UHGV virus genome: UHGV-1882326
Strand: one strand, 5' to 3'
Source of the DNA: a virus
Length of the DNA stretch: 64,000 bases
The stretch's first letter is position 1; each line of letters begins with the position of its first letter. The notes under the pieces are model-generated. The model did no database searches. It was given only the letters and a program-made list of their open reading frames with translations, and was not told where the DNA came from. The position numbers and the translations under genes are program-made. Below are positions 13,941 through 56,627 of this stretch, piece after piece.

Positions 13941-16900
13941 TTAATCTCTCCTTCCACCCATCTGTAATGCTCTGTTTTTTAAATTCTTTAATTCGTCAAT
14001 AAATGATTGTGCGTTGGTAACATTTGGTAATGTAAGATTTTCAAAAGCGTAGTTATAAATAGGTGCAGACTGTCCACCCATTTTTCCTACAATACTGTTT
14101 AACCATTGTGTAGGTGAGAATTTACCAAGTTGCATAAGATTCTCAGTCAAATGATTAGGAATAATACCGTCACCCTCATTAGACCTTGAACCAAGAACTC
14201 TTAATTCTCGACCTTTTTCACCAACCATAGATAAACCATAACCTTTTGTTGTACCGTTTGCATAAGCCCCCGGGCCATGTGAAGTATCATCTTCATACCA
14301 GTTATCACCACCAGACCCATGAGAATAACTAGGTTCTTTATCAGAATAATATTCATCTGGGTCAAGTTCGTCACCAAAATCTTCATCGTCATCATCATCG
14401 TAACTTTTATATCTTGTCTTAAGTGTACTCATTATTTCATTGTATCTATCTACATAATCTTGAAGATTGCCAAGACGTTTCTCCCAGTTTTCACCCTCTA
14501 AACTGATACCTAATACTTGTTCAGCAAGAAGTTTATTCTGTTCAGTTGTATAATTATCTGTAACATTTCCCCATTCATCTTTATACTTTTGCCAATACTT
14601 TATCTGTTCTTCAACTGAATTAATTGTAGCGTCACGAATATCTTCTAATCGTTTTATCTCTTTCTTGGTGTCTTGCTCTTTCTTATATTGTGTAAGAGCA
14701 GTTTTAGCTTCGTCTACAGCAGATTGGTCTGTTTCGTAAACAAAACCTTGTCCCTCTCTATATATTCTTACTTTCTTTTGTTGTGCTTTTGCTAAAGCAT
14801 CTAACTTTTCTTGTAGTTCAATTTCGTCATTTGTTGCATCGTTCTTTTCGTTTATTTTGTCAATCTCAGCATCGTACTGGTCTTGAATAGCTTGTTTTCT
14901 TTCGTTAAGTGCATCAATTTCTTTTTGCGCTAATGAAGCAACATAACTAAACGCTGTTTCCAGATTAGATTGTTGTTCCTCATACCAAGCCTTTTCTTCC
15001 TCCCACTCTTCTTTACGTGCTTTCTTACGCTTTTCTGCTTCTTGCTCTGCTTTTCTTGTATTTTCTTCTTCAAGTTTATTACGTCCAGAATAAATCTCTT
15101 CTTCAATTTTCCAACGTTGCTCTGCGTATTTTTCTTCATTACTATAGAACTCTTTCATTAATTCTTCAAGTTCGTCATAGTATTCCTGTTCAGAAATCAT
15201 ATCCATAGCAAGTTGATGTTTTAAGAGGTTATAACGCTCAGTATAAGCCGCATCATGGGCTTTTGTCATACCGTCTAAGGCTTTCTCATGATACTTGTTA
15301 TATTCATCCTCATACCCCTCTTTATCTTTGTAGTATTTATTTGTAAGTTCTTCAAGCTGTTCATAATACCATTTATCTGTAGCGGCATTATCTTTCATTG
15401 AAGCCTTTTGTTTATCTAAAGCAGCAAGTTCTTTTTCAAATGCTTCTTTATATGCTTTAGCGTCTGCTTTTGCTTGCTTTTCTTCATCTGAGGTTGAGGA
15501 CTTTTTGGAACCACCACCTTTACCGCCTTTACTACCAGAAGTAGAAGGTTTAAATTGTAATCCTTTTCTCAATTCCTCTAAAAGTTTTTGATTTTGTTGA
15601 TTACGGTAAGCTTGAACTTGTGCGTCAAATCCTTCTGAGTAAGATTGAACACCAACACCGCTACTGCCTGTTCTAGCTTTTGGTGCGGCACCAGATACAG
15701 CATCTAAACTAGAAGCAAATTGTAAAATTCCTTGCGCTCCTTGTGCAAATTGGTTACCTGTTGTTATAGCTGTATTACCAATCGTTGTTAAATAAGGATT
15801 TGCTTGTGAACTTGCTGTTCCCACTTGTTGAATAGAAGTTCCTAAATTATCAGAACCTTGTTTCCCTGTTTCTGCGTTTGTGCCAACTTTTTGCTCACTT
15901 TCACTAAAAGTATCTAATCCTTGTGAACTAGAAATAGCAGAAATCCCTCTTTCAGTAAAGCTTTGCGCCATTGACATTAAAGAAGCATCATTAACAACTA
16001 ATTGACCATTTACCATTTGTAAAGAATTAAGATATTCTGGGTTTAAAGATAATAAATCAGCCATTGTATCTATTGTAACACTACCTGTTTTATTATATTC
16101 GTCTGCTACTTCATGTAAGGTATTATAAGCGTCTTGAACGCCTTTTAATTCTGATGTAAGACTTTTAATAGCTTTTTCAAATTCTTCTGTTTGGGAAGCG
16201 GCTTCACCTGCATCTTCACCATATTGATTTACACCATCGGCGGCTTCTTTTGCTTTATCACCATTATCTTGTAATTCAATTCCTAATGCTTTTGCAAAAT
16301 CTGGGAATTGCGTAGCAACAACTTCGTCTAACGCTTCTTTAAACAACGGAATCTGTGAATTATTTTCAAGCAACGCATTGTATACACTTTCAAAAGAACT
16401 AAGGCTATCATATTGAGTGTTTATAAAAGATTGTGTCTTTTTATCAACATCAACTGTTGCGTCAGCGGCTTCTCTTGTAAGTGTAGCAGTTTTATTATAT
16501 TTATCCTCTAATTCAACAAGAGTATTACTTAAGAACGCTAAAGTTTGCTGATGCAATTTTGTTTGATTATCTTCTTGTTGCATTGCGGTAATAGTAGTGT
16601 TTAAATCCGCTATTAATTCTTTATAACCACCTGCCGCTTCATAAACACCTTCGCCCAAACTCTTTGTATATTTATTATAAAACGCCTTAAAAGATTCACT
16701 GGATTCAGTATCATAAGTAAATTTTAAAGGAATGTAAAATGAAGTTCTATTTAACATATCCTGTGTTGCTTTTTGTGCTTTCTGAATTTCAGCTTGATTT
16801 CTGTTCAAAAAATCTTGTGATTTTTCAGCATTTTCTTTACTAAGTAAATCTAAACCTTCTGCTCTTGTTCCGTTCAAATTTGATAGTGCTTCTTCTTCAA

Positions 16901-18602
16901 TACCGTAAGCCTTAGCAAGTTTAGAAATTGTAGATTTTAACTTTTGTTTATTTTCATCTTCATCACCTGTAGCTTCTTTAGCATTAATATATTCAAGTCT
17001 TAAATTATAAAGATTTTTTCTTTCATCTTCAAAACTACTACCTGCTTGTTCTGCGGCTCTTCTTGCGTTTTCTTGTTGAGTATTATAATAACTATAAGCG
17101 GCTACAAGTCCAGTAACAACAAGTGATACTGCACCTAAACTTGCAGTTAATAAACTACCTGCACCTGCCATAGCCGTAAATCCTTGTGCTAAAGAACCTG
17201 TAGCGGCATAAGCATAATCAAATTTAGCAATCATATCTAAAACATTTGTAGATATTTTCGCTATCATTTCTGGTATTTTATGTCCGTTAAGAGTAATAAA
17301 AGCACCTGTAATAGCAGTAAGTACAGTGGGCATACCACCTAAATCATTAATAAGTTTTAATACTTGTGTACCAAATTCTACAAGGCGTTTTACACTATCT
17401 GAGGAAATACCCTCTGTCCAAAACTTTTCTAATTCAGATGTGAACTGAGATACTTTACCTTGTATACTATCCAAATAACGTGCATTTTCTTTAAGTGCTG
17501 AACCTTGGGAATCTAAAGCTAATTTATAAGCTTCTGTAGCAGAATTAAGGTTTGTCATAACCGCACTAAATACGGAAAATTGGTTCTTACCTGCAAGTGC
17601 CAAACCCAATGATTGTTTTTCAGCTTGTGACATTTCATCCCAACTAGATTTTAAATCTTGAAAGACTTGATAAGTGCTTTTCATTTCTCCTGTAGATTGG
17701 TCAAATAAATCTATAGATTTTGTAACACCTTGTACTTTAAAACTTAATTCTCCTGCTTCATTAGCCGCTTTTGCTATATTATTTCCCACCGTGGTCAATC
17801 CTCTTGCCACTTGCACACTTCTTCCAGTAAGAATCTCCGTACCTGATGTAATTAATGCTATAGATTCTTCAAAGTCATTGCCTAATACAGAAAGACCTGC
17901 ACCTGCAACAGTAAGACCTTTTGCTAAATCATTAGTTCCGACAGCCATGTTATTAGCAACCTCGTTGGTGGCATCTATAATATGCTGTGCATCTTGTGAT
18001 GTCATATTAAACGCTTTCATTTGAGAGTTTACAAAACTTGCACTATCTCCTGCGGAAATTGCAGTATCTGCAATATTTTGAAACATAGTTGCTACTTTTC
18101 CTAATTGTAAACTTTCTTGGTCTGAATAACCCATTTTCTTGAACTGGGTTCCTGCTTCTATAAATTCAGTAGCACTTTTTCCTACTTCAAGACCCATTTC
18201 TCTTGCTGTACTTACAAAACTTTTCATTCCCTCGTCTGTTAAATCAGACACTTTCTTATATTCAGTAACAGCGGCATCTAATTCTCTAACAGCATCTACA
18301 CCGTCCATTAACGATTGTCTTAACTCATTAATAACAAGTGTTACGCCACCAAACTTAGATACTTTAGTAAATATATCACCAATACTTTGAAAAGTTTTTT
18401 CTGCGCTCGTACTGGTATCATCAAATCCCACTTTTAATCCTTTAAGCCCACTTAACGCATCACTAAGTTTGCTTGTATCAACATCAATGCCAACTTTCAT
18501 AGTTGCGTATTTTTGACTTATCTTATCTAATTGTGCTTGAATATTTTTTGCATCTAATACTGCATTTACAAGTATTTGAAAATTACTACTATTCAATGCC
18601 AT
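13941..18602 (-). CDS. tail tape measure protein
   Basis: 1553 aa, the largest ORF. It has long coiled-coil K/E-rich stretches and hydrophobic segments, and sits downstream of the major tail and chaperone-like genes. Confidence 0.85.
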   Translation of the reverse strand: MALNSSNFQILVNAVLDAKNIQAQLDKISQKYATMKVGIDVDTSKLSDALSGLKGLKVGFDDTSTSAEKTFQSIGDIFTKVSKFGGVTLVINELRQSLMDGVDAVRELDAAVTEYKKVSDLTDEGMKSFVSTAREMGLEVGKSATEFIEAGTQFKKMGYSDQESLQLGKVATMFQNIADTAISAGDSASFVNSQMKAFNMTSQDAQHIIDATNEVANNMAVGTNDLAKGLTVAGAGLSVLGNDFEESIALITSGTEILTGRSVQVARGLTTVGNNIAKAANEAGELSFKVQGVTKSIDLFDQSTGEMKSTYQVFQDLKSSWDEMSQAEKQSLGLALAGKNQFSVFSAVMTNLNSATEAYKLALDSQGSALKENARYLDSIQGKVSQFTSELEKFWTEGISSDSVKRLVEFGTQVLKLINDLGGMPTVLTAITGAFITLNGHKIPEMIAKISTNVLDMIAKFDYAYAATGSLAQGFTAMAGAGSLLTASLGAVSLVVTGLVAAYSYYNTQQENARRAAEQAGSSFEDERKNLYNLRLEYINAKEATGDEDENKQKLKSTISKLAKAYGIEEEALSNLNGTRAEGLDLLSKENAEKSQDFLNRNQAEIQKAQKATQDMLNRTSFYIPLKFTYDTESSESFKAFYNKYTKSLGEGVYEAAGGYKELIADLNTTITAMQQEDNQTKLHQQTLAFLSNTLVELEDKYNKTATLTREAADATVDVDKKTQSFINTQYDSLSSFESVYNALLENNSQIPLFKEALDEVVATQFPDFAKALGIELQDNGDKAKEAADGVNQYGEDAGEAASQTEEFEKAIKSLTSELKGVQDAYNTLHEVADEYNKTGSVTIDTMADLLSLNPEYLNSLQMVNGQLVVNDASLMSMAQSFTERGISAISSSQGLDTFSESEQKVGTNAETGKQGSDNLGTSIQQVGTASSQANPYLTTIGNTAITTGNQFAQGAQGILQFASSLDAVSGAAPKARTGSSGVGVQSYSEGFDAQVQAYRNQQNQKLLEELRKGLQFKPSTSGSKGGKGGGSKKSSTSDEEKQAKADAKAYKEAFEKELAALDKQKASMKDNAATDKWYYEQLEELTNKYYKDKEGYEDEYNKYHEKALDGMTKAHDAAYTERYNLLKHQLAMDMISEQEYYDELEELMKEFYSNEEKYAEQRWKIEEEIYSGRNKLEEENTRKAEQEAEKRKKARKEEWEEEKAWYEEQQSNLETAFSYVASLAQKEIDALNERKQAIQDQYDAEIDKINEKNDATNDEIELQEKLDALAKAQQKKVRIYREGQGFVYETDQSAVDEAKTALTQYKKEQDTKKEIKRLEDIRDATINSVEEQIKYWQKYKDEWGNVTDNYTTEQNKLLAEQVLGISLEGENWEKRLGNLQDYVDRYNEIMSTLKTRYKSYDDDDDEDFGDELDPDEYYSDKEPSYSHGSGGDNWYEDDTSHGPGAYANGTTKGYGLSMVGEKGRELRVLGSRSNEGDGIIPNHLTENLMQLGKFSPTQWLNSIVGKMGGQSAPIYNYAFENLTLPNVTNAQSFIDELKNLKNRALQMGGRRD

Positions 18603-19188
18603 TGTTTATGTACCTACCTTTCTTAGCATTTATATTTGGCTTCTTACCAAATCCCTTACTTATTTCAGTAGGTTTAATCTGTGACCATGCTATTCCAATA
18701 GCATCTCCAATATCGTCATCATTTTTCACGCTTTTAGGTTTATCTAAATCATAAAACAATTCCAACCCAAAAATATGATTGACTTTTTCTATAGTTTTCC
18801 ATTTCATTACTGGACGTTTAGTTCCATTTCTAGTACCATCATAAACGCCCAAATCACTACGCCATTTACTAGGCATAAGAAATTCTATTTTTACATTATG
18901 TACCGCACAAACACCTAATACAATTCCTTGTAACACTGATAATTGTTTTACTGTTTGTACATTATTACCACATTCACCGCTTAAAATTGTATCTTCACAA
19001 TAAATAAAAAACGGGGAATAAGTGTCCAATAGCGTGGATAACTCATTCCCCATATATATACAACGTTCTCTCCAAGCTATCTCTTGCTTCTGTTTCCAAA
19101 CGCCAAATTTTATCAATTTACCATTTTTAAAAACTGAATATCCAGAACTTTTCGTTGACATATCCAGTCCAATTACAACATTTTCCAT
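18589..19188 (-). CDS. RuvC-like Holliday junction resolvase fold protein
   Basis: 199 aa. The N-terminus VVIGLDMSTKSSGYSVF resembles the RuvC/YqgF GxDxGxxxxGxAV motif. There is a C-terminal DDDIGDAIGIAW acidic motif. It overlaps the tape measure start by 14 nt. Confidence 0.5.
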   Translation of the reverse strand: MENVVIGLDMSTKSSGYSVFKNGKLIKFGVWKQKQEIAWRERCIYMGNELSTLLDTYSPFFIYCEDTILSGECGNNVQTVKQLSVLQGIVLGVCAVHNVKIEFLMPSKWRSDLGVYDGTRNGTKRPVMKWKTIEKVNHIFGLELFYDLDKPKSVKNDDDIGDAIGIAWSQIKPTEISKGFGKKPNINAKKGRYINNGIE

Positions 19189-19208: not shown

Positions 19209-19718
19209 TTACCAGAAAGAGGATATATTTTTACCTCTTCCTACACTTCTACATTGTATTCCTTGTTTCTGCATACCTTCAATAAACCATTTCTTTAATT
19301 CACCTTTGTTTAACTGTTCAATCAACGGTGTCCAAGCATCTCTTGGTTTATTCCACCAACCATATCCAAATAAATCACCACCAAGACCTTGATATATAAT
19401 TCCAGTTAATTCATCTCTTACATCACCATAAGTAGTATATAAACTACCATGTTGGAACATTTCTGGATTATAAGACATAAAAGTAGGGTCTTGGGATAAA
19501 ATCCCAGACCCACCTTGTCTTGTTTTTTGTGATTTTGTTTGCCAACTTTCCAGAAATTCATATGTTCTTTCATATTCTTCTGGTATATGTGCATATACAA
19601 TCTGATTGATTAAATGCTTATAATTCACCAATATTTGTTGCATTACATATTCAACAGCTTTAGAAACTGGTTCATTGTACAAGGAATAAAACTCACCTGC
19701 ATTTTTAGCATAAGCCAT
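19209..19718 (-). CDS. hypothetical protein (possible tail assembly chaperone T-like part)
   Basis: 169-aa ORF between the 170-aa acidic protein and the tape measure gene. No motif was recognised. Confidence 0.25.
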   Translation of the reverse strand: MAYAKNAGEFYSLYNEPVSKAVEYVMQQILVNYKHLINQIVYAHIPEEYERTYEFLESWQTKSQKTRQGGSGILSQDPTFMSYNPEMFQHGSLYTTYGDVRDELTGIIYQGLGGDLFGYGWWNKPRDAWTPLIEQLNKGELKKWFIEGMQKQGIQCRSVGRGKNISSFW

Positions 19719-19727
19719 TTTACCTTA

Positions 19728-20240
19728 TCACTTCTTTCCAAATGCTTCTACTAACTTTTTACTGTCTGCTAACATGTCCTCAATCTGTTTATTGTTAGGC
19801 ATTTTCTTAGCATATTTATCTAAAGTCTTATTCAATTGTTCTAAAAATTTATTCACGTTGGTTCTGATTGATAATTCATCTTCTACATAATCATCAATCT
19901 CACTAACGTTAAATATATTATAATCCACAACGTCAATAATTCCAGATTTAACAAGCATATCATAATCTTTAACAATTCCCTCTGGAATATCAGTCATTAA
20001 TTTAATAAGCATTGTATTTTTAACAACATTTCTTTCAACAGCATTTGAACATTTTAACATATTATTTCCAATAAGTTCAACCTGTTCTGGGGTTAAATAC
20101 TGTTTTACCGTATATTTTTCACCTTTTTCGTCCTCAGTATAAGGAATTGTTACCACTTTTTCTTTTAATTCAACCATTTCATTCCGTCCTTTCGTTTCGT
20201 TCCATAATCTATGTACAAAGGGTGCAACGAAACGTAACAC
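19728..20240 (-). CDS. hypothetical acidic protein (possible tail assembly chaperone)
   Basis: 170-aa acidic ORF. The probable start is the internal MVELKEK. Function is inferred from its position between the major tail and tape measure genes. Confidence 0.3.
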   Translation of the reverse strand: MLRFVAPFVHRLWNETKGRNEMVELKEKVVTIPYTEDEKGEKYTVKQYLTPEQVELIGNNMLKCSNAVERNVVKNTMLIKLMTDIPEGIVKDYDMLVKSGIIDVVDYNIFNVSEIDDYVEDELSIRTNVNKFLEQLNKTLDKYAKKMPNNKQIEDMLADSKKLVEAFGKK

Positions 20241-20303: not shown

Positions 20304-20573
20304 CTACTTATCTGTAACCACTTTCTTTGCAACTTGGTCTACCCATGTGGAAGCCATTCCAGACACAATACCAATGGCAATAGCTGTCATAATATCATCA
20401 GCAGGAAAATCAACCATATATCTATAACCTAAAACACCTGCAATTCCACCAATCAGTCCAACAATCGGCAGAATCTTATTATTATCTAACTTAGTATAAT
20501 TTTTAACAAACTGCCCTGCAAGATAAGCAATAACTACAATTACAGGTACACTTACAATTCCGAAATCTGGCAT
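20304..20573 (-). CDS. holin-like small membrane protein
   Basis: 89 aa with two predicted TM helices (VSVPVIVVIAYLAGQF and ILPIVGLIGGIAGVLGY) and a charged C-terminus, the typical class II holin architecture. Confidence 0.55.
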   Translation of the reverse strand: MPDFGIVSVPVIVVIAYLAGQFVKNYTKLDNNKILPIVGLIGGIAGVLGYRYMVDFPADDIMTAIAIGIVSGMASTWVDQVAKKVVTDK

Positions 20574-20588
20574 AATATCAAATCCTTT

Positions 20589-20969
20589 CTATTTGAATCC
20601 ATATTTAGTTGCTAATATATATCCTACAAAAGATATTGCAATAATTATTGTAGGGAAATTTTTCTTTATGTATTCCATAATATTAAAATTAGATTCGTCT
20701 TTAATTTTATTAAAATCTGTCTTAATATCGTTTACTTGAAGTTTAACGTCTGAAACGTCACTTTGTAAAGAAATCATTGTAATTTTAATATCTTGAATAG
20801 TTTCATTCAATGCTTTATTAGTTTTTACAACTTCCTCAGATAAATTCTGAATAAATTTATGACTTTCTTGAAGTCTGGTAATATCTTGTGTATGTTCATC
20901 TACTTTTAACTTAACTTCTCTTAAATCCTCTTTAATTTCATGTGCTGTCATATCTTCCACAAATCTCAC
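20589..20969 (-). CDS. XhlA-like coiled-coil membrane protein
   Basis: 126 aa. It has a long coiled-coil and a single C-terminal TM helix (FPTIIIAISFVGYILATKYGF). It lies directly upstream of the holin, as xhlA does relative to xhlB in PBSX-like lysis cassettes. Confidence 0.4.
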   Translation of the reverse strand: MRFVEDMTAHEIKEDLREVKLKVDEHTQDITRLQESHKFIQNLSEEVVKTNKALNETIQDIKITMISLQSDVSDVKLQVNDIKTDFNKIKDESNFNIMEYIKKNFPTIIIAISFVGYILATKYGFK

Positions 20970-21027: not shown

Positions 21028-21402
21028 TTAATCACCACAAAGGTTAGCAAATACAATACCAGTAATTGCTCTCAAATCAGCCTTATTCAAAGTTCCAATA
21101 TAGTTCTTAAACCTTGACTTATCCACAGCACGAATTTGTTCAGCACAAGCAACGCTATCATCTACAAGAAATTTATTTTTTTCTTTAGATAATGTATAGT
21201 GTGTAAGCAAATCTTCTCTTTTAACTTTAGAAGTTAAAGGTACTATGATTATGGTAGGGCTATAAAAATTTCCAGTATCATTCTGTAAAATTAATACTGG
21301 TCTTACTCCGCCTTGTTCTGAACCTTGGGTATTCCTTAAATCAGCATAATAAACTTCCCCTCTTTTGAATGTTCTTGCGTTATTGTTTATTGTTGTAAAC
21401 AT
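21028..21402 (-). CDS. mazF: MazF/EndoA (PemK-family) endoribonuclease toxin homologue
   Basis: 124 aa. RGEVYYADLRNTQGSEQGGVRPVLILQND...IIIVPLTS...DSVACAEQIRAVDKSRF is near-collinear with Bacillus EndoA/MazF (GSEQGGVRPVL identical). It has its own upstream -10-like TATAAT element. Confidence 0.85.
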   Translation of the reverse strand: MFTTINNNARTFKRGEVYYADLRNTQGSEQGGVRPVLILQNDTGNFYSPTIIIVPLTSKVKREDLLTHYTLSKEKNKFLVDDSVACAEQIRAVDKSRFKNYIGTLNKADLRAITGIVFANLCGD

Positions 21403-21484
21403 ATTCAGTTCTCCTTATGTACTATATTTTTATATAACTTTCATATAATATATATAGCACTTTTTATTTACAAAGTCAATACTT

Positions 21485-21832
21485 TTATTTACCATAACCC
21501 TTATTTTTATTAATACCATACCCATTTTTTGTCTTATATAAAGTAACATATTTAGGTACAAAATTAAAAGGATTTTTCAATGTAATCACCATATTGTTCT
21601 CAACTTCAATATACAATTCGCCTTTCTTTTCAAAACGAACCCTTGAAGCCTTTTCTGGAACAATATATTCACTTTTTAACCTACAAGTATCTTGACTTGG
21701 TAATGGTTTCCAACAATCTGATATATTGCACCAACGAACAAAAGGACAAATATTACCATTTTGTCTTTTACATAAAACCCTATTTCTATTATCTACTTTA
21801 CCAATATATGAATCTGGACACAAAATAATCAC
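21485..21832 (-). CDS. Cys-rich hypothetical protein upstream of mazF (candidate partner)
   Basis: 115 aa with eight Cys (CPDSYIGKVDNRNRVLCKRQNGNICPFVRWCNISDCW). No MazE/AbrB-like motif was found. Confidence 0.35.
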   Translation of the reverse strand: MIILCPDSYIGKVDNRNRVLCKRQNGNICPFVRWCNISDCWKPLPSQDTCRLKSEYIVPEKASRVRFEKKGELYIEVENNMVITLKNPFNFVPKYVTLYKTKNGYGINKNKGYGK

Positions 21833-21914
21833 TTCCTTTACAACAAAATTTAAAATATGTAAAATGCGTAGAGCATATCACCCTACGCATATAGATACAA
21901 ACTAGTAACAGAGA

Positions 21915-22961
21915 TTAGCCAACAGTTACATTAGCATAACCTTCTACTGCTGTATTCTTAGTGAGAACAGCATGGATAGTAGTTGTACCAGTTGCTACAC
22001 CCTCTACTTCACCAGTTGCATCATCCACTTTAGCAGTACCAGCAGCACCACTTGTAAAAGTAACAGCAGTTGGGTCTACTAACTTAGGTAAAGCATTTCT
22101 GATAAGAGCATAAACCTTAATAGTTTCTTTTTCACTTACTTGTAAATCAATATCAGCCGGAGTTAAAGCCAATGCGTAAGCGTCATTCTCCCACTGAGCA
22201 GTAGACAGAATTTCCTTAATAGTACCATAGATAGCTTCATCACTACAGCTAGAGGTTTCAGCAGATGCCAGAGCAGAACCATTAAGAGGCGTATTAGCCG
22301 CACCAGTCATACTCATAGAGATTTCCTGTGAGCCGTTTAACATTAAACGTGGAATGTCAATCTGAACCTCGCCAACTTTAGTAGTAGACGCTTCATTTGG
22401 ATTAGTGCTACTACCTGCAAACAGAGTACCAGTCATTACAGCATGAACGGTAGCAGGAATAAAGTTAGCACCTACTGTCAGCACTCTCATAGAATCGTTG
22501 TTTACTACATACTTAACGCAATAAACATCACCAGACATAGCACCTGCAACAGTGATAATCTTATTGTTGAAAGTACCTTTAACCCATGTAGAGCCATTAG
22601 GCTTTTTGTACCAACCAATAGTACCAAAGTTACCAAATGCTACAGGAGTACCACTTACGGTAATCTGTCCTGCGTCTGTTACAGTAACTTCCTCAGAAGT
22701 TAAAGCACTACCACCAATCGCAATATCAGAACCAATGTTCTTTGCGATAAATTCAAGACGGAACATTACATCAGTAAGAGTTATGTCCATTGTAGAAGAA
22801 TGTGCATATTTGCCATACAGTTTTGCACCTTGTCCACCACGAATATCTTCAAGAGATACATCAAAACTAAAAGTAGAATCTGTTAAAGTTTTTGCAGTAG
22901 CAAACAGTTCATCGCCTACAAAAAGGTCAACATTTGCTACACCAGCTAAAAAAGCATCCAT
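21915..22961 (-). CDS. major tail protein with C-terminal Ig-like (Big_2-type) domain
   Basis: 348 aa and Thr/Ala/Gly-rich. The C-terminal TGTTTIHAVLTKNTAVEGYANVTV is Big_2-like. It lies upstream of the tape measure block. Confidence 0.55.
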   Translation of the reverse strand: MDAFLAGVANVDLFVGDELFATAKTLTDSTFSFDVSLEDIRGGQGAKLYGKYAHSSTMDITLTDVMFRLEFIAKNIGSDIAIGGSALTSEEVTVTDAGQITVSGTPVAFGNFGTIGWYKKPNGSTWVKGTFNNKIITVAGAMSGDVYCVKYVVNNDSMRVLTVGANFIPATVHAVMTGTLFAGSSTNPNEASTTKVGEVQIDIPRLMLNGSQEISMSMTGAANTPLNGSALASAETSSCSDEAIYGTIKEILSTAQWENDAYALALTPADIDLQVSEKETIKVYALIRNALPKLVDPTAVTFTSGAAGTAKVDDATGEVEGVATGTTTIHAVLTKNTAVEGYANVTVG

Positions 22962-29637: not shown

Positions 29638-30186
29638 TTACTGAACTCTCTCTAAAATCCAAGCAGGTTCACTATCAGCACCAATAGCAATAGGCATAGA
29701 CTTACGGATAGCAAATCTTAAACCTGCATAAGCACTTGTAGCTTCTGTAAGAGCCTTCCAACCGGTACCTGCGGTATATTCTACATACTTAGCTGTAGCA
29801 CCAATAGTAGCAGGGTCTTGTGCATTTGCAAAGAACGGAGTGGTAAGCTGTACGCAATCACCAATCTGTACGGAAATTACATCAAAATCTGTGTTCTTAA
29901 CATTGGTGTAATTTCTTGGGTCAACACCAATACCTTTGTACAATAAAGTACCATCTGGCAGAACATTAACTTCTGGGGCGCAAGCCATCCAATACTGAGC
30001 ATGTTTACCTGCGTCACCTAAAGGAGTAGCTGTCCATACAAATCCCTTACCTGCTATTTCAGTGAAACCAGTTTCAAGAGTAACTACAGTACCATTCATA
30101 ACATCAGTATCACAAATAGCAGAACGATTATAAGCGTCTACGTTATCAGCCGCAACTCTGGATAAAACTAAAACTGTATTAGCCAT
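29638..30186 (-). CDS. hypothetical head protein (decoration/accessory)
   Basis: 182-aa ORF between the scaffold and capsid genes. Confidence 0.3.
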   Translation of the reverse strand: MANTVLVLSRVAADNVDAYNRSAICDTDVMNGTVVTLETGFTEIAGKGFVWTATPLGDAGKHAQYWMACAPEVNVLPDGTLLYKGIGVDPRNYTNVKNTDFDVISVQIGDCVQLTTPFFANAQDPATIGATAKYVEYTAGTGWKALTEATSAYAGLRFAIRKSMPIAIGADSEPAWILERVQ

Positions 30187-33837: not shown

Positions 33838-34962
33838 TTAAACACTTAAAATTCTCAATCCTTCATTCAAAATATTAATAGAAGCATTATTATCTCTATC
33901 TAATTTTGAACCACAGTTAGAACAAATCCAGTATCTAATCTCAACAGACTTTTTACCACCATTAACACCACAACAATGACAAATTTGAGAAGAAGGAAAA
34001 TATCTATCAATTACAGATAATATCTTTCCATACCATGTAGATTTATAAGTCAACATTCTACGAAATTCAGACCAAGAAACATCATTCACATGTTTATTAC
34101 GAACATTTGAGTCTGTACTTTTCATAGATTGAACATCTAAATCTTCAATACAAATAATATCATATTGTTTTACAAGATTAGTAGTCAATTTCTGTAAAAA
34201 GTCTTTACGTTGATTAGATATATGTTTTTGTAAATTTGCAACTTTAATTCTTGCTTTATTCCAATTAGAACCACCGATTGTTTTTCTCAATAACTCTCTT
34301 TGTAATTTAGCAAGTTTCTTTTCTGATTTTTCATAAAATCTAGGATTTTTAATCTTAACACCGTTAGATAAAATTGCAAAATCTACAATTCCTAAATCTA
34401 TCCCAACATTTTTATTTGTTTTTGGATATTGTGGAAATTCTATATCAGCGCAACATAATGAACAATAATAATGTCCGTTAGGTTCTTGTGATATAGTAGC
34501 ATTAAGTATTCTTCCTTGCGGAATTTGTTTATCGCGAATTTTTACACAACCTAATTTTGGAAGTTTAATATGTTTATTTTCAAATCTTATATTACCACCA
34601 GCTGTAGTTTTCATATAACTTGTAGTATAAGATTGATATCTATTTTTCTTAGACTTAAATTTTGGATACCCAGTATGCTCTTTAAAGAATTTTTGATAAG
34701 CATTATCTAAATTTTTTAATGAATTTTGTAAAGAACATTTATCTGGTTCTTTAAGCCATTCATTTTCTTTCTTTAATTGAGTAAGCATTTTACTTGTGTC
34801 ATAAAAGCTTAAACTCTTTTTATTTTCTTTATACTCAGTTATCTTTTTATCTAAAAAATAATTATAAACATATCTACAACAACCAAAAGTTTTTTGTATT
34901 AATTCTTGTTGTTTTTTATTCGGATAAATTCTATACTTAAAAGCTTTTTCCAACAATATCAC
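33838..34962 (-). CDS. tnpB: TnpB (IS200/IS605-family OrfB; RNA-guided RuvC-like nuclease)
   Basis: 374 aa. The N-terminus KAFKYRIYPNKKQQELIQKTFGCCRYVYN is the OrfB_IS605 helix. A RuvC-like split domain is followed by a C-terminal zinc finger CHCCG...CSNCGSKLDRDNNASINIL. Confidence 0.9.
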   Translation of the reverse strand: MILLEKAFKYRIYPNKKQQELIQKTFGCCRYVYNYFLDKKITEYKENKKSLSFYDTSKMLTQLKKENEWLKEPDKCSLQNSLKNLDNAYQKFFKEHTGYPKFKSKKNRYQSYTTSYMKTTAGGNIRFENKHIKLPKLGCVKIRDKQIPQGRILNATISQEPNGHYYCSLCCADIEFPQYPKTNKNVGIDLGIVDFAILSNGVKIKNPRFYEKSEKKLAKLQRELLRKTIGGSNWNKARIKVANLQKHISNQRKDFLQKLTTNLVKQYDIICIEDLDVQSMKSTDSNVRNKHVNDVSWSEFRRMLTYKSTWYGKILSVIDRYFPSSQICHCCGVNGGKKSVEIRYWICSNCGSKLDRDNNASINILNEGLRILSV

Positions 34963-40958: not shown

Positions 40959-42248
40959 ACCTTACACTCCTAGTGAACTACTACAAAATTAAAAACCTCG
41001 TAATTTCTTGCTTCAACGTCCTCGTAACCTACTAACTCCACAAGCGTAAATTCCGATAGTTCCTACCGTACTATTTATTATTAAGTTGCACTTAAAATTC
41101 TTAGTCCTTCATTTAATATATTAATTGCGGCATTAATATCTCTATCATGCACAGTACCACATTTAGAACATCTCCACTGACGTACAGATAAATTCTTTGT
41201 ATCTTTATTAATATAACCACATACATTACAAGGTTGACTTGACTTTGTAAATCTATCAATCTTTATATATGTGCGTCCATTCCAATCAGATTTATAACTT
41301 ATCTGTCTTGTCAATTCATACCAACCACAATCAAGTATTGATTTTGAAAGATTATGATTTTTCACCATATTAGAAATTGCTAAATCTTCACTAACTATTA
41401 CTTGGTTTTCGCTAATAAGTTTATATGAAATTTTATGCAAATAATCTATTCTGGTATTTTTAATTTTTTCATATACTTTTGCAAGTTTGATTCTTTGCTT
41501 CTGATAATTCTTACTACCTTTTTCTTTATGAAAAAGTTTACGCTGTTCTTTAGCAAGTTTTTTCTCATATTTTTTAGTAAGTTTAAGATTATCAAACTTT
41601 TCTCCATCAGAAGTTATAAGTAAATCCTTAATGCCTAAATCAATTCCAATAGAATTGTTTGTATGCTCTAATGAAATATGTTCTGTTTCTATTAAAATAG
41701 ATACAAAATATTTACCAGAGGGAACTTGCGAAATAGTAGCAGATTTAATTTTTCCAGTAAATTCTCTATGAATTTTTGCTTTCACCCATTTAAGTTTTGG
41801 AAGTTTAATTTTATTGTTATCAAAAGAAACTTCAATATTATTATTTGCGAAATTTGTTTTATAAGATTTTTTATTATCTCGTTTGCTTTTGAACTTTGGA
41901 TAACCAGTATGTTCTTTAAAGAATTTTTGATAAGCGGAGTCCATATTATAAATGGAATTTGTCAAAGACCATTTATCAACCTCTCTAAGCCATTCATATT
42001 CTTTTTTTAGTTGTCTATTACAATAGTTATTCAAATCAATTTTACTCATAGAAACACTTTCATTTTTATATTTATTGATTTTAAGATTTAAACACTGATT
42101 ATAAACAAACCTGCAACAGCCAAAAGTTTTTTGGATTAAAATTTTTTGTTCTTTGTTTGGATATAATCTGTATTTATAGGCTTTTAACATTTACTTATCA
42201 CCTCCAATCTATTTATATTATATATTCTACTACATTTTCATTAACTTG
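40959..42248 (-). mobile_element. IS605-family (IS1341-like, tnpB-only) insertion in an intergenic site
   Basis: It carries tnpB copy 2, a 58-bp upstream region with a -10-like TATAAT, and a 122-bp 3' region conserved with the 3' region of copy 1. No tnpA is present. Confidence 0.6.
41081..42190 (-). CDS. tnpB: TnpB (IS200/IS605-family OrfB)
   Basis: 369 aa. It starts MLKAYKYRLYPNKEQKILIQKTFGCCRFVYNQ and ends in the zinc finger CNVCG...[19 protein letters not shown]. It is paralogous to copy 1. Confidence 0.9.
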   Translation of the reverse strand: MLKAYKYRLYPNKEQKILIQKTFGCCRFVYNQCLNLKINKYKNESVSMSKIDLNNYCNRQLKKEYEWLREVDKWSLTNSIYNMDSAYQKFFKEHTGYPKFKSKRDNKKSYKTNFANNNIEVSFDNNKIKLPKLKWVKAKIHREFTGKIKSATISQVPSGKYFVSILIETEHISLEHTNNSIGIDLGIKDLLITSDGEKFDNLKLTKKYEKKLAKEQRKLFHKEKGSKNYQKQRIKLAKVYEKIKNTRIDYLHKISYKLISENQVIVSEDLAISNMVKNHNLSKSILDCGWYELTRQISYKSDWNGRTYIKIDRFTKSSQPCNVCGYINKDTKNLSVRQWRCSKCGTVHDRDINAAINILNEGLRILSAT

Positions 42249-42923
42249 TCAACCATTTTCATGCAATTTCTTTAAATTTTCTATTATTAAATCACCGACA
42301 ACAGCCCAACAAAAGTATTTATTCTTATTCTGCCCATAACATAAATCAAGCATAATATTAACAAGTCTGTCTTTGTTTGGACAAATTTCTTCTGCTCTTG
42401 CTCTAAATTCATGCTGTATGCTCATTACTCTTATATTTGCTTCTTCTGTACTTAAATTTTTCTCAATCACAATTTTCTTAAATTGCTTAATACGTTTAAT
42501 GTATTCTTTTTCAAGATTTTCAATATCTTCTCTTGTTTTAGGTGAACTTCTTTGAATAGGAGATTTAAGAAATTCATAATCAAAGCCTTTGGCTTTAAGT
42601 TCTGTCACTCTACCATCAAATTCACTTTCTATATATCGACAAATTCGGTTCATAGTAGAATCAGAAATGTTTACAGGCATTTTTATATCGTACCATTCTA
42701 AAAATTTTTGCTGTTCTTCTGTAAGATTTTGTTTTTTTCTTAGTTCATTTACTTTACAGCCATAAAGCATAACACATTTAAGGTCACAATTTTTTATATA
42801 ACTATCGTAATCTTTCTTTAAAGAAGAATAATTATAAATAAAGTAATAAGGCTTTTTATCTGTTACGATTATTTTATCTAATGTAGTGGTACATAATTTT
42901 GAAACATACCAATACTTAGGCAT
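42249..42923 (-). CDS. hypothetical protein
   Basis: 224-aa ORF. Confidence 0.3.
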   Translation of the reverse strand: MPKYWYVSKLCTTTLDKIIVTDKKPYYFIYNYSSLKKDYDSYIKNCDLKCVMLYGCKVNELRKKQNLTEEQQKFLEWYDIKMPVNISDSTMNRICRYIESEFDGRVTELKAKGFDYEFLKSPIQRSSPKTREDIENLEKEYIKRIKQFKKIVIEKNLSTEEANIRVMSIQHEFRARAEEICPNKDRLVNIMLDLCYGQNKNKYFCWAVVGDLIIENLKKLHENG

Positions 42924-42927
42924 TTCC

Positions 42928-43140
42928 TTACATACAATTCCTTTTAATTTCCTTTATACCCTCTGTCACCAGATATTTATTGGGGGAGTAGACTATCTCT
43001 TCACTTAATATTTCTATTAAGGTTCGGCACTTCCAAACAAGGACTTTCACCTTGAATGTACTGGTTTCATAATCTTTATACAAAGACCGTATACCATAGT
43101 CGTTACACCGTTCAAAAACGTCACCGTTTAAGCTTGGCAC
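42928..43140 (-). CDS. small hypothetical protein
   Basis: 70-aa ORF. Confidence 0.25.
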   Translation of the reverse strand: MPSLNGDVFERCNDYGIRSLYKDYETSTFKVKVLVWKCRTLIEILSEEIVYSPNKYLVTEGIKEIKRNCM

Positions 43141-43152: not shown

Positions 43153-43956
43153 TTACAAATATAAGCTAAACAATTCTTTTTGTGGAGCATATTCTCCATA
43201 ATATTCTTTTTCAGCTATAAGTCTTGTTTTTATAGCTTCTTCTTTTGTATCAAATCTTCCTAAATTTATTCTTTTATAATTATACCCTATTCTAGCTATC
43301 CATTTATTTTCTCTCTTATTATAACAAACACCAGAAACACCAGAAGTATTATTTTTATGTGTTGAAGCATTTTTCGCATTTTCGCTAGGAGAACAAATTC
43401 TTAAATTATTTTCTGTGCAATCATAAGTATTTCTATTTATGTGGTCTACAATTTTATCTTTCATTATTCCATTTGTTTTTGCAACTTCCACATCTTTAAA
43501 ATATATTAATCTGTGTAATATTAAATTTTCTCTTGTTTCTCCTTTTTTGTTTCGATTATCTCCTAAATGCGCTCTGGCATATTTTTTATATGCGAACCAA
43601 TAAAATTGAGAAACCAACTCATAATTTTTTAAATCTATTTTTACTTTTTCTAATGAATTATTAAAACATAAGAAGCAGTAATCTTTTCCTTCTGGAAAAA
43701 TATATTTATTTTCTTTTTTACGGCTTTCTGAAATTTTATTTCTTCTTTCTAAATTTCTTTGTTCTTTATTGCACTCACAATCTATAATTTTATTATTATT
43801 AAGATAAGTTCCTTTTATTGCTTGTACTCTACCACATAATTTACATTCACAGTCAAAATAGGATATTTTATTTTTACTACTTAATTCTTCGTTTATTTTT
43901 ATTACATACCATGTATCAAATGTTAAGCCTTCTAATTGTAATCTCTTATTTGACAT
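43153..43956 (-). CDS. HNH homing endonuclease with AP2 DNA-binding domain
   Basis: 267 aa. HNH motif VDHINRNTYDCTENNLRICSPSENAKN. AP2-like segment SGVSGVCYNKRENKWIARIGYNYKRINLGRFDTKEEAIKTRLIAEKEY. Confidence 0.75.
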   Translation of the reverse strand: MSNKRLQLEGLTFDTWYVIKINEELSSKNKISYFDCECKLCGRVQAIKGTYLNNNKIIDCECNKEQRNLERRNKISESRKKENKYIFPEGKDYCFLCFNNSLEKVKIDLKNYELVSQFYWFAYKKYARAHLGDNRNKKGETRENLILHRLIYFKDVEVAKTNGIMKDKIVDHINRNTYDCTENNLRICSPSENAKNASTHKNNTSGVSGVCYNKRENKWIARIGYNYKRINLGRFDTKEEAIKTRLIAEKEYYGEYAPQKELFSLYL

Positions 43957-44067: not shown

Positions 44068-44355
44068 TCAATCCAAGGTATTTTGCTGATATAACTGCCC
44101 ACACAAAATACGTTTTGATAATTCTTTATATTCATTAGTGTTTTCATTAAATAAAGCCAATTTATCTATTTGTGCTGATACTCTATTAGTGATTGTTCCA
44201 ACTTCTGAGCCTAAACCCATACGGTTACTTTTTCTAATATCATTTCTTTTAACAACTTTCTTCTCGCCTTTACGTTGCACACAATCAATAGAATTTGTAT
44301 ATCTGTAAGTATTTAAAAGTATATTATTATTCGTGGAATAAATTGTGTCACTCAT
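44068..44355 (-). CDS. small hypothetical protein
   Basis: 95-aa ORF. Confidence 0.25.
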   Translation of the reverse strand: MSDTIYSTNNNILLNTYRYTNSIDCVQRKGEKKVVKRNDIRKSNRMGLGSEVGTITNRVSAQIDKLALFNENTNEYKELSKRILCGQLYQQNTLD

Positions 44356-44560: not shown

Positions 44561-45130
44561 TCAATAATTCCAAATTTCTCTAGTTACAACTCTTTTAACC
44601 AAATTCCATTTATTCTTTTGTTTTCTATAGGTATCTAATTCTGGATGCATAATTCTTACTATTTCCATTACGGTTTTACCTTCGTCATATAATCTTCTTA
44701 TTTTCTCTACATCTTCACCTGTATATTTTGCTCTACCATTATTTTCACCTTGTCTACCCTTACAATAAGTTTCATAATTATTTTTAATAGTATAAGCAAT
44801 ATTTTCAACATGTGTTATCCATTCAAGATTTTCAAAATAACTATCTGTTCTTATAAAATTTTTATGATTAACTTCTAAAGGTTCGTCTGTTTCTGGTTTT
44901 GGAACAAATACCATAGCAACAACACGGTGTACAGTTATAGACCGTCTATTTTTAAGATTGCCTAATGTTACTATTGGATAACCGTCTGGATTTAGTCTTT
45001 GTTTGACCATTCCTCTTTCTGGTGCTATAATTCTTCCGTAATTGCTTACTTTATATTTTAGCCCATTAAATTCCCAATCTTTCCATTCTTCTGGCTTTCT
45101 TTTAGGGGTTAATCTTTTTGAATTTTTCAA
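44561..45130 (-). CDS. HNH homing endonuclease (NUMOD4-HNH type)
   Basis: 189 aa. NUMOD4-like YKVSNYGRI. HNH core VHRVVAMVFV...EVNHKNFIRTDSYFENLEWITHVEN. Confidence 0.75.
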   Translation of the reverse strand: MKNSKRLTPKRKPEEWKDWEFNGLKYKVSNYGRIIAPERGMVKQRLNPDGYPIVTLGNLKNRRSITVHRVVAMVFVPKPETDEPLEVNHKNFIRTDSYFENLEWITHVENIAYTIKNNYETYCKGRQGENNGRAKYTGEDVEKIRRLYDEGKTVMEIVRIMHPELDTYRKQKNKWNLVKRVVTREIWNY

Positions 45131-45328: not shown

Positions 45329-46843
45329 TTAATCAAAGTCACAACCGTTCAATGCCATACATGTAGTATCCCAATCATTTAACACCATCATTGTATTAGA
45401 ATATTTATACCATTCTTGACATTTTTTATCATTGTTTACTCTCATTTTTCTAATATTATTATGTGAAGTCATAGGAGAACGAAAGCAAACTACTTCATTC
45501 ACACCTTTATCAGCCCAGTATTGTGAATATATTTCATTAGCTTTAAGCAGACCAGTGATTTCTAACCCATATATACTTTGCATTAAAGCATAAGGGTCTC
45601 CCATAACTATCTGATAATTTCCCTCAACTTTTAATTTACCAATCTTAGCTTGATTAATCTTTTTCTTAATCATCTTGTTAATTCTATCAATCACATAAGG
45701 GTCATTCATCATTCTTTCGTCTAAATACAACGCCTGTGCATAATCTTTAGTTTTAGTTTTTTCACCAACTCCTAAAAATTCTTTTGTTTTTTGGTAATCA
45801 CCGCCAAACGCCATTTTTAGCCAGTCAACAGTAGGTTTACACAATTCCACAATTTGTTCATCTGTCAGTTCATAACTTTGCAAATACTGATAATTTGTTT
45901 CTCTTGTATCCTCTAACTTTTTAGGTGTTACTTTTGTAGCAGAAAACCTATATCCATTTTCATAATAACACTTGTGGTATTCTTCCCAACTAGAATAATT
46001 ATCCCATAGTTTAAGACTGGATTCAGTGATAATCATATCCACATCTCGAATATCTCTTTCAGTACCCCAAATATCTTTTACTTTATATCCCTTACCAACT
46101 TCCTCAGCAAATTTTATAATCTCAAAGACATTCAACATACCTTTCATATAAGCATTTCTTAAACAAATACCACTTGGCAAATAATCAAGACCTAATTTAT
46201 CAGCAACTCTTTGCATATATTCTGGTGTACAAAGATTCATGCCGTCACTGCCGTTGTTTTCCAACTCTACACCAAATTTTTCCTCAACGATAGGTTCATC
46301 TGTTTCACTATCATCAATCCTAACCACTTCACCCTTAAATTTAGTGATACAATCTCGTACAACCAATACAGAGCGTGGTTCTGGTATCTCAACGGACGCT
46401 GAATAGGTCAGAGCAATATAAGCCTCTAATTTAGCCGGTATAGCCTTGTAATCTTTCTTCCTACCACAATCAGTCCTTTTAATTAACTCTGGTAAAATAT
46501 CTTCTCTCACAAACAATAAAGTATTATTTTTAAGACCACCAGTAGTTCCAACAACCCACAAAAACCTTTTACCATTTAAAATCACACCAGTTTTAGACGT
46601 AACTTTGTCATAGTCACTCATTGAGGAAATCTCCACAGCAAGCATTAAATCCGTCATATCTTGCTTGTATCGTTTGTTACCTATAATTGTAATTAAATCT
46701 ATCAGTCGAAATGCTTGTGAATCAAATAAGTCAATCAATTCGTCTAAACGAACTGCCAATTCTTTAGATAAAGTAATCTGCCAGTTATTCATTCGGAATC
46801 GTTCAGACGAAATCTTGAAAATCTTTCTACGTTTATTTTGCAT
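45329..46843 (-). CDS. hypothetical large protein, first gene of the leftward operon (possible replication or nucleic-acid enzyme)
   Basis: 504-aa ORF with a strong RBS AAAGGAGG. No motif was confidently recognised. Confidence 0.3.
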   Translation of the reverse strand: MQNKRRKIFKISSERFRMNNWQITLSKELAVRLDELIDLFDSQAFRLIDLITIIGNKRYKQDMTDLMLAVEISSMSDYDKVTSKTGVILNGKRFLWVVGTTGGLKNNTLLFVREDILPELIKRTDCGRKKDYKAIPAKLEAYIALTYSASVEIPEPRSVLVVRDCITKFKGEVVRIDDSETDEPIVEEKFGVELENNGSDGMNLCTPEYMQRVADKLGLDYLPSGICLRNAYMKGMLNVFEIIKFAEEVGKGYKVKDIWGTERDIRDVDMIITESSLKLWDNYSSWEEYHKCYYENGYRFSATKVTPKKLEDTRETNYQYLQSYELTDEQIVELCKPTVDWLKMAFGGDYQKTKEFLGVGEKTKTKDYAQALYLDERMMNDPYVIDRINKMIKKKINQAKIGKLKVEGNYQIVMGDPYALMQSIYGLEITGLLKANEIYSQYWADKGVNEVVCFRSPMTSHNNIRKMRVNNDKKCQEWYKYSNTMMVLNDWDTTCMALNGCDFD

Positions 46844-47245: not shown

Positions 47246-47274
47246 TTGACATATTCTATATTATATGATATAAT
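47246..47274 (+). promoter_or_regulatory. consensus sigma-A-type promoter for the rightward early operon
   Basis: TTGACA (47246..47251), then a 17-nt spacer, then TATAAT (47269..47274). It sits in an extremely AT-rich divergent control region. Confidence 0.7.
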
Positions 47275-55515: not shown

Positions 55516-56627
55516 ATGTTGGTAGCATACAAATACAGATTGTATCCGAATAAAGAACAACAAGAATATTTTGCTAAATGTTTTGGGTGTGTACGATTTA
55601 TCTATAATCGTATGCTTTCAGATAAGATTGACTATTATAAAGAAACAAAGAAAAAGCTGAATAATACACCTGCTCAGTACAAGAAAAAGTTTGAGTGGCT
55701 AAAAGAAGTAGATTCACTTGCATTAGCAAATGCTCAAATGCTCAAATGAATTTGCAGACAGCCTATAACAATTTTTTCAAATGTCCAGAAGTGGGTTTTC
55801 CAAAATTCAAAAGCAAGAAGAATAATCACTTCTCTTATACTACAAATAATCAGGGAGGAAACATTTATGTGACAGACCGATACATAAAACTCCCTAAGAT
55901 TGGACTTGTTAGAGTTCGGAAACATAGAGATTTTGAAGGACTAATTAAGTCTGTTACTATTTCTAAAAGTCCGTCTGGTAAATACTTTGTTTCAGTATTA
56001 GTAGACCAAAAAGATAAAGAAAAATTAATTCCAAACAATAACCAAATTGGAATTGATTTAGGTATTAAAGAATTTTGTATTACTTCTGATGGAGAGATGA
56101 TTCAAAATCCAAAGTTTCTTAGAAAGTCTGAAAAGAAATTAAGAAAATTACAAAAGGATTTATCTCGTTGTCAAAAAGGAAGTAAAAATAGAGAAAAATG
56201 CAGAATTAAAGTCGCAAGACAACATGAAAAGATTGCAAATCAACGTAAAGATTTTCTACATAAGTTATCTAGGCGATTTATTAATGAAAACCAAATCATT
56301 GCATTAGAAACTTTGAAAATTAAAAATATGATGAGTAATCATAAATTAGCAAAATCAATAGCAGATGTATCATGGTCTGAATTTGTAAGACAATTAGAGT
56401 ATAAGGCTCAGTGGTATGGTAGAGAAATCGTAAGGATTGATACTTGGTATCCATCAAGTCAGATATGCTCTAATTGTGGTCACAAAGACAGAAGAAAGCC
56501 ATTATCAGTAAGAGAATGGATCTGTCCTAATTGTGGTACACATCATGAAAGGGATATAAATGCAGCTATAAATATTCTTAAAGAAGGTTTGAGAATTAAA
56601 ACGGCAGGAACTGTCGAGATAGTCTAA
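55516..56627 (+). pseudogene. tnpB: tnpB copy 3 (IS605-family), frameshifted by an 8-bp tandem duplication
   Basis: It is split into 55516..55749 (MLVAYKYRLYPNKEQQEYFAKCFGCVRFIYNR) and 55695..56627 (RuvC-like domain plus zinc finger CSNCG...[19 protein letters not shown]). The sequence TGCTCAAA occurs twice in tandem at 55731..55746, and removing one copy restores a single ~370-aa frame. Confidence 0.85.

Follow-up and report, generated by a model that had tools for sequence, protein, structure and literature searches.

Can a phage keep a gene for a MazF-type toxin without a matching antitoxin, and what could it gain by doing so? The question is raised by a 64,000-nucleotide (nt) stretch of the virus genome UHGV-1882326, referred to below as the window and always meant at its full length. 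Here, a first-pass annotation had noticed a solitary mazF gene within the tail gene block, preceded by a small Cys-rich gene and accompanied by no recognisable antitoxin. The explanation that we tentatively favour, at somewhat less than an even chance, is that mazF is an accessory gene for an antitoxin-free phage ribonuclease (RNase) that may serve RNA takeover or turnover in lytic infection. The evidence bearing on this reading comprises family and structure matches, conservation of the active site, searches for an antitoxin, and the distribution of mazF and its neighbours across related phages.

The MazF family itself, the PHROG 1936 class, antitoxin-less MazFs in other phages and the annotated orthologue in phage PMBT24 were already known. 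What is new is the long-term residence of mazF in a tail module, together with the finding that the suspected antitoxin is a core gene of that module and belongs to an uncharacterised family. The phage mazF is no one-off: it is maintained under purifying selection, in a tail module, across a broad clade of human-gut Firmicute phages. Since an orthologue is carried by PMBT24, a cultured virulent phage that grows on Enterocloster bolteae, the question of what mazF does is directly testable.

Family membership and conservation of the phage MazF

The mazF product matches the Pfam family PF02452 (PemK_toxin) with an E value of 2.4e-28 and a score of 99 bits (cut-off 23.1), the match spanning residues 13-113 and profile positions 1-101 of 109. 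The PHROG 1936 profile, 'MazF-like growth inhibitor', is matched equally clearly (E 1.3e-28, 101 bits). Among solved structures, matches were obtained to Staphylococcus aureus MazF (4mzm, 1.6e-26) and Bacillus subtilis EndoA (4mdx, 1e-22), to which the phage protein is 49% and 48% identical, respectively. The three sources agree with the first-pass assignment to EndoA/MazF, and by family membership the product is a genuine MazF/EndoA-type endoribonuclease. The motifs on which that assignment had been based (GSEQGGVRPVL, IIVPLTS and DSV..EQIR.VDK.R) are all present. In the alignment, R34 (within GGVRP) and T57 (within VPLTS) coincide with R25 and T48 of B. subtilis MazF, which we take from the published structure to be its catalytic residues; the key catalytic positions are thus in place.

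Comparison with the Gram-positive mazEF systems (ndoAI-ndoA; B. subtilis YdcE/EndoA, 4mdx and 4me7; S. aureus, 4mzm) shows a shared PF02452 fold family, a common catalytic Arg/Thr pair and common RNA-groove motifs (GSEQGGVRP and EQIR). On this basis, the phage enzyme likely has a U^ACAU-type cleavage chemistry similar to that of Gram-positive MazF. The genetic setting differs, however, in that no mazE gene of the AbrB or RHH type adjoins mazF or appears among the window families listed, and in that the phage gene lies in the tail module of a virulent-type phage behind its own promoter-like element.

Estimates of the ratio of nonsynonymous to synonymous substitution rates (dN/dS) range from 0.11 to 0.32 for mazF, from 0.10 to 0.23 for the gene of the major tail (tube) protein and from 0.16 to 0.41 for the Cys-rich gene, so that mazF and the tube protein are under comparable purifying selection. 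Divergent MazFs from equivalent phage modules, at 35-41% identity, keep the catalytic Arg and Thr in nearly all cases. With bacterial MazFs, the window protein shares 45-58% identity, and its RNA-groove motifs closely resemble those in the chromosomal MazFs of Firmicutes. Phage MazFs diverge fast relative to bacterial EndoA-type MazFs, and a neighbour-joining tree of phage and bacterial sequences did not resolve whether there was one ancient capture or repeated captures. One divergent module MazF (locus L083, 1976-2338) carries His in place of the catalytic Arg (NIHPVVVV), and its gene has a 4-nt overlap with its Cys-rich neighbour.

The phage represented by the window is SPbeta-like, about 100 kb in size, and shares the YomU, YomW and YomX tail genes. 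Its nearest cultured relatives are the ~100-kb E. bolteae phages PMBT24 and CB457/CB473, which have a mazF orthologue in the equivalent syntenic slot, and many contigs from human-gut metagenomes and IMG/VR show equivalent synteny. The paper on PMBT24 describes the phage as virulent and is silent on the gene that is annotated in GenBank as 'mRNA interferase' (PMC11035940). Like this gene, other phage MazFs of PHROG 1936 (Psychrobacillus phage Perkons, Lactobacillus phage Maenad and Faecalibacterium phage Lagaffe) have no annotated antitoxin neighbour. In these three phages, however, mazF is found among early or replication genes, whereas in the window it is located in the tail module, as the first-pass annotation had noted, between the tube and tape measure genes. 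No functional study of a phage-encoded MazF was found in the literature searched.

Conservation of the active site also bears on the suggestion, made at the outset, that the protein is a decoy for host MazEF abortive infection. Such a decoy might titrate a host factor, for instance, or pair with host MazF in inactive heterodimers. Manipulation of host MazEF is known from SPbeta-like phages, since the SPbeta-family phages phi3T and SPbeta neutralise host MazF through AimX and YosL, which mimic the C-terminal helix of MazE (M-x3-Y-x-E-M; PMC10769878). In both cases the biology of an SPbeta-like phage is wired to a MazF RNase, but phi3T and SPbeta encode inhibitors of the host's enzyme, whereas the window phage encodes MazF itself, with no AimX-, YosL- or MazE-type motif found in a small peptide. 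A decoy would moreover tolerate loss of catalysis, yet the catalytic residues are conserved under purifying selection, and binding of host MazE would free host MazF rather than block it. The decoy scenario therefore finds no support in the conservation data and appears very improbable.

The search for an antitoxin and the Cys-rich neighbour

Searches for an antitoxin were directed at protein domains, helix motifs and RNA. A Pfam scan of 96 non-overlapping open reading frames (ORFs) of at least 40 aa (amino acids) in the window gave no MazE, AbrB, RHH or Phd among the families listed (25 of 36), and a scan of 49 small window ORFs at E<=0.05 likewise gave no MazE/AbrB, RHH or Phd among those listed (25 of 32). 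Both neighbours of mazF were without a match to any antitoxin family in Pfam, PHROG, NCBIfam or PADLOC. When the MazE-helix motif M-x3-Y-x-E-M was sought in all six frames of the window and of the complete PMBT24 genome, it occurred in no small candidate peptide; each genome yielded one loose chance match elsewhere. The PMBT24 annotation, with 173 features, contains no antitoxin. As regards RNA, Rfam and repeat searches around mazF detected no Rfam family and no ToxI-like RNA repeat array, the best repeat being a weak AT-rich 22-nt unit (3.2 copies, 74% match) that spans the 3' end of the coding region. A type III RNA antitoxin was dropped from consideration because there are neither tandem RNA repeats nor an Rfam match. 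The earlier statement that no antitoxin is recognisable thus holds for all three kinds of search in the window, among the families listed, and no canonical mazE-like ORF emerged in another frame from the six-frame motif and small-ORF scans.

Another candidate came from the PMBT24-like clade, where alone an ORF of 148-149 aa with a zinc (Zn) ribbon is situated between the Cys-rich gene and mazF (L001, 4499-4945; L008, 4340-4738; L022). In L008, this ORF has decayed to a pseudogene through an in-frame stop and loss of the Zn ribbon, yet mazF beside it is intact, which indicates that the ORF is dispensable. In L022, the match is confined to residues 47-148, the C-terminal two-thirds, and the gap that separates it from the Cys-rich gene is wider; the window contains no trace of the ORF. 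The 149-aa Zn-ribbon ORF was excluded as an antitoxin on the grounds of its absence from the window and its decay in L008.

MazF might instead be guarded by a factor that such searches do not recognise, for instance the acidic coiled-coil neighbour, a small phage protein encoded elsewhere, or host MazE early in infection. The coiled-coil gene adjoins mazF in both gene orders, being the next gene downstream in the window and the one just preceding in L033 and L139, where the two reading frames abut or overlap, and PMBT24 has many small hypothetical ORFs. Given the identity to bacterial MazFs and the similarity of its RNA-groove motifs to those of Firmicute chromosomal MazFs, cross-binding of host MazE is conceivable. 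On the other hand, the coiled-coil gene also belongs to the core in MazF-lacking relatives, in which it comes next after the Cys-rich gene, and three loci with MazF (L052, L057 and L084) are without it. The empty domain scans of the window and the empty helix-motif scans of the window and PMBT24 also speak against such a guard, which we consider unlikely.

The Cys-rich gene directly upstream had been proposed as a novel antitoxin. The first-pass annotation credited its product with eight Cys and 115 residues; there are in fact six Cys, at residues 5, 21, 29, 35, 40 and 50, and the length holds for the GTG start, although translation more likely begins at the TTG at 21823, for a protein of 112 aa that opens with MCPDSY like its homologues. 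The description of the protein as lacking MazE, AbrB or RHH features was correct, inasmuch as no match of any kind was obtained in Pfam, PHROG, NCBIfam or PADLOC. A word-indexed search retrieved seven relatives, and a profile search of 1.8 billion representatives retrieved 152 clusters at E<=1e-3. The family thus comprises at least 152 clusters at 50% identity, is basic and uncharacterised, and is almost always encoded directly after YomU-type tube genes. In the family alignment, C2, C18, C26 and C47 are invariant and C32 is nearly so, followed by a core with the pattern VRFEKxGxLY...NPF..VP..V. Single-protein scans of viral contigs with distant members of the family found nothing.

For its structure, an earlier model from seven sequences was discarded (predicted local distance difference test score, pLDDT, 52), and AlphaFold2 with a 64-sequence alignment yielded an all-beta, two-part model with a pLDDT of 92.7. 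The predicted fold consists of a Cys cluster and an OB-like barrel, and fold searches returned OB-like barrels only, with no similarity to antitoxin folds. The protein has an isoelectric point (pI) of 9.5 and a net charge of +10.7, and the family median pI is 8.8. These data define what appears, from the model, to be a widespread family of small proteins with a Cys cluster and an OB-like barrel as a core component of YomU-type tail modules.

The distribution of this family was examined in IMG/VR loci sampled through the tube protein, and hence independently of both genes, with the requirement of at least 2 kb of downstream sequence. Among the 61 loci obtained, which are phylogenetically clustered so that the counts represent non-independent events, both the Cys-rich gene and mazF are present in 28, the Cys-rich gene without mazF in 27, neither in six, and mazF without the Cys-rich gene in none. 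Cys-rich sequences with and without MazF fall mostly into two subfamilies. In MazF-lacking relatives the module runs tube, Cys-rich, (coiled-coil), 170-aa protein, 169-aa protein, RuvC and tape measure, from which it follows that the Cys-rich gene, and often the coiled-coil gene too, belongs to the core and that mazF is an accessory insert. The Cys-rich family tracks the tail tube gene rather than MazF, and the 27 of 55 carrier loci without MazF argue against a dedicated antitoxin.

Where mazF is present, its usual position is immediately after the Cys-rich gene. Other genes can nevertheless intervene, namely one in the PMBT24 clade, two in L033 and L139, and six over 2.9 kb in L086, where no MazE-like ORF was found in front of mazF. 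A conserved toxin-partner pair, for which the first-pass annotation had suggested that gene neighbourhoods be inspected, is therefore not what these loci show. In addition, a scaffold of 866 nt from ENA (L009) has a 154-nt frameshifting deletion, equivalent to window positions 21503-21655, by which the Cys-rich protein loses its C-terminal half after residue ~56. Its mazF, legible for 91 aa to the end of the contig, is identical to that of the window; this is weak evidence from one scaffold.

It might still be that the Cys-rich Zn/OB-like protein doubles as a non-canonical MazF inhibitor, and that mazF was inserted behind this core gene because its product restrains the RNase until late. The arrangement of the two genes is suggestive: in all close loci (27 of 27) the Cys-rich gene precedes mazF in the same orientation; in distant clades (tube identity ~40%) the two are separated by only 1 or 6 nt or overlap by 4 or 11 nt (L050-L057, L072-L079, L083 and L137); and in L138 the pair remains joined although it has moved 3.4 kb from the tube gene. 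MazF was not encountered without the Cys-rich gene in the tube-anchored sample, the protein has a size typical of antitoxins, and MazF inhibitors other than MazE, such as AimX and YosL, exist in SPbeta-like phages (PMC10769878). These observations have to be set against the MazF-free carriers and the intervening genes, against the 82-bp gap with a promoter-like element in the window, and, for what it is worth, against the truncation in L009. The properties of the protein fit no better, as it contains no AimX-, YosL- or MazE-like motif and has only OB-like barrels as structural relatives. MazE-type inhibitors act through an acidic helix that enters the basic RNA groove of MazF, whereas the Cys-rich protein carries a strong positive charge. 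The antitoxin proposal is accordingly disfavoured, and a double role of this kind seems rather unlikely. It is unlikely, too, that the Cys-cluster/OB-like protein represents a wholly new type of MazF inhibitor, basic and resembling nucleic-acid binders, that sequesters or targets the RNase and so led to the capture of mazF just behind its gene or, in a variant, that late MazF is packed into virions for the next host. If so, however, this would be a toxin-partner pair whose 'antitoxin' is an essential phage gene instead of a dedicated one.

Expression signals and the proposed role in infection

The distance of 82 base pairs (bp) between the Cys-rich gene and mazF was confirmed, as was the claim that no ORF fits in the gap. 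The sole additional ORF, of 43 aa from a TTG start (21430-21561), overlaps the 3' end of the Cys-rich gene in a different frame and has no family match. The first-pass annotation had also assigned mazF a TATAAT element of its own. The exact TATAAT, at 21444, belongs to the plus strand and so is wrongly oriented for mazF, but the coding strand does carry TTGACT-17 nt-TATATA, preceded by TG (TG-n-TATATA), at 21479-21451, and a putative ribosome-binding site, AAGGAG, at 21416-21411, 8 nt 5' of the mazF ATG. The pattern TTGAC[AT]-N16-18-TATA[AT][AT] occurs just twice in the 64 kb, each time in an intergenic region and once before mazF, against a chance expectation of ~1.6 matches per window as estimated from base composition. 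The diverged relative L007 keeps the element as TTGACA-18-TATATT. It is missing in L010, where mazF starts 3 nt past the upstream stop, and in the distant clades, in which mazF is coupled to the upstream gene. The second match, at 47246-47274 on the plus strand, is a perfect sigma-70/sigma-A consensus (TTGACA-17-TATAAT) in a divergent intergenic region between minus- and plus-strand gene blocks.

The phage also encodes a YonO-like single-subunit RNA polymerase, whose PMBT24 homologue is annotated as 'RNA-dependent RNA polymerase'. In SPbeta, the YonO enzyme transcribes the late genes. A sigma-A-type promoter alongside YonO-driven late genes would imply that mazF is expressed by the host polymerase in the lineage of the window.

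Of the roles suggested in the first-pass annotation, that of a host-shutoff agent or weapon is the best one left, as a proposal. What we infer under the favoured explanation about catalysis, specificity of cleavage, timing and advantage for the phage is as follows. The mazF gene may have been captured long ago by a lineage of ~100-kb SPbeta-like phages of gut Firmicutes, virulent in type, and retained as an accessory gene in the tail module, usually right behind the core Cys-rich gene. Its product would be an active, sequence-specific MazF/EndoA-type endoribonuclease without a dedicated antitoxin, and such a toxin would need no guard because the cell is doomed in lytic infection. MazF would be produced during infection, in most lineages by co-transcription and often translational coupling with tail genes, and in the lineage of the window additionally from its own sigma-A-like promoter. 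Its probable targets would be host mRNAs, phage mRNAs made earlier, or both, cut at a short and likely UACAU-like motif; MazF would thereby contribute to RNA takeover or turnover with a logic analogous to that of T4 RegB. RegB is an early-gene mRNA endonuclease that recognises GGAG, has a RelE/YoeB-like toxin fold, lacks an antitoxin and inactivates a class of mRNA in infection. It is likened here in logic only, as its fold is unrelated to that of MazF and no homology is claimed.

Several observations weigh against an antitoxin-free RNase of this kind. About one-third of the genome lies beyond the window, and small unannotated proteins could act as MazF inhibitors. In several distant lineages mazF and the Cys-rich gene are tightly coupled or overlap, and the pair is intact in L138. 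MazF is present in none of the six loci without the Cys-rich gene, a pattern that a toxin in need of a partner would produce, although these six loci come from very few lineages. Furthermore, UACAU, the site of Bacillus and Staphylococcus MazF, shows no avoidance on the sense strand (82 observed vs 74 expected), and its content in late genes is no lower than in early genes of either the window or PMBT24. Sense-strand counts of the other published MazF motifs show no depletion either, and no word is depleted on that strand alone. Self-protection through site avoidance was excluded on the basis of these undepleted motifs. In the absence of avoidance, MazF would cut phage transcripts as well, unless its specificity, dose or timing keeps the damage in check.

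The protein may, alternatively, no longer arrest growth and may be an attenuated or repurposed RNA-binding or processing factor for the tail operon, adjusting for example the ratio of tube to downstream transcripts, or a virion protein for the next host. Such a role would suit the long retention between the tube and tape measure genes, at tube identities down to ~33%, the rapid divergence of phage MazFs relative to bacterial EndoA-type ones and the His substitution in L083. It would also suit the strong hairpin after the tube gene, with an 11-bp stem and a 5-nt loop followed by UUUU (folding energy -17.3 kcal/mol, z = -4.2 vs shuffles). This hairpin is probably a terminator or attenuator that balances tube against downstream expression, and it could attenuate read-through. 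Nevertheless, nearly all members preserve the catalytic Arg/Thr pair along with the RNA-contact motifs, and the window protein is 48-49% identical to characterised toxic MazFs. An attenuated or repurposed MazF is on the whole quite unlikely.

The tail module and other features of the window

Every gene of the region lies on the minus strand, and the order is YomX_C, YomW, an unnamed gene, tube, Cys-rich, mazF, coiled-coil, Hol44 holin, 170-aa, 169-aa YomN-like, RuvC-like and tape measure (Table 1).

Table 1. Positions and supporting evidence for the features around mazF in the window
Feature	Coordinates	Strand	Basis
Tape measure gene	13941-18602	minus	PhageMin_Tail
RuvC-like Holliday-junction resolvase	18589-19188	minus	phrog_827, phrog_159
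169-aa YomN-like core protein	19209-19718	minus	Weak YomN match on L084 orthologue; synteny
170-aa core protein	19728-20240	minus	Synteny across all loci
Holin, Hol44 family	20304-20573	minus	Pfam Phage_holin_5_2 (1.1e-14), phrog_1129
Coiled-coil protein, 126 aa, with C-terminal hydrophobic (membrane) anchor, pI 5.6; frequent core member	20589-20969	minus	Coiled-coil-type Pfam matches only
mazF, 124-aa MazF/EndoA-type endoribonuclease (PemK_toxin family); accessory gene of tail module	21028-21402	minus	Pfam, PHROG and PDB matches
Intergenic region, 82 bp, with sigma-A-like promoter and ribosome-binding site	21403-21484	minus	Read from sequence
Cys-rich basic protein, 115 aa (GTG) or more likely 112 aa (TTG); core tail-module gene	21485-21832	minus	Sequence, homologues
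Terminator- or attenuator-like hairpin just 3' of tube gene	21864-21890	minus	Folding energy and z score vs shuffles
Major tail (tube) protein, YomU_Tube type with C-terminal Big_2; module anchor	21915-22961	minus	Big_2, phrog_2729, phrog_341; PF27173 YomU_Tube on orthologues

The coiled-coil protein has no match to XhlA or to any other specific family. The holin gene lies within the tail module and remote from the endolysin gene (in PMBT24, holin at 30093 and lysin at 48776), and its absence from some related modules (L033, L052 and L057) suggests that it is an accessory insert like mazF. The RuvC-like gene directly precedes the tape measure gene and overlaps its start, a position kept in all related loci, including those lacking MazF. 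In several related loci the tape measure ORF is seemingly in pieces, and L120 (12882-13679) and L129 (13064-13861) have an inserted ORF of 266 aa, Cys-rich and nuclease-like in its features, immediately ahead of the tape measure region or inside it.

Elsewhere in the window, the homologue of the YonO-like polymerase (831 aa in PMBT24) is split into three pieces on the minus strand, at 45332-46843 (aa 1-501), 44071-44349 (aa 503-595) and 42237-42950 (aa 596-831), with ORFs between them at 44561-45130 and 43153-43956. The gene looks as if two mobile elements had been inserted into it, which might be introns or inteins that carry homing endonucleases. Three ORFs resemble IS605 OrfB/TnpB (OrfB_IS605 and Cas12f1-like TNB domain), at 33838-34962 (minus), 41081-42190 (minus) and 55695-56627 (plus); the third is without the N-terminal helix-turn-helix (HTH), which may lie in the overlapping ORF 55516-55749. 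A DDE_Tnp_1 match is also present. Finally, very strong strand-symmetric word avoidance, typical of restriction sites, is seen across the window, with observed vs expected counts of 5/112 for GATC, 0/24 for GAATTC, 3/31 for GGCC and 0/13 for CCAGG, and further of 0/13 for GGACC, 4/31 for GCTGG, 3/24 for GAGAC and 1/17 for GAAGAC.

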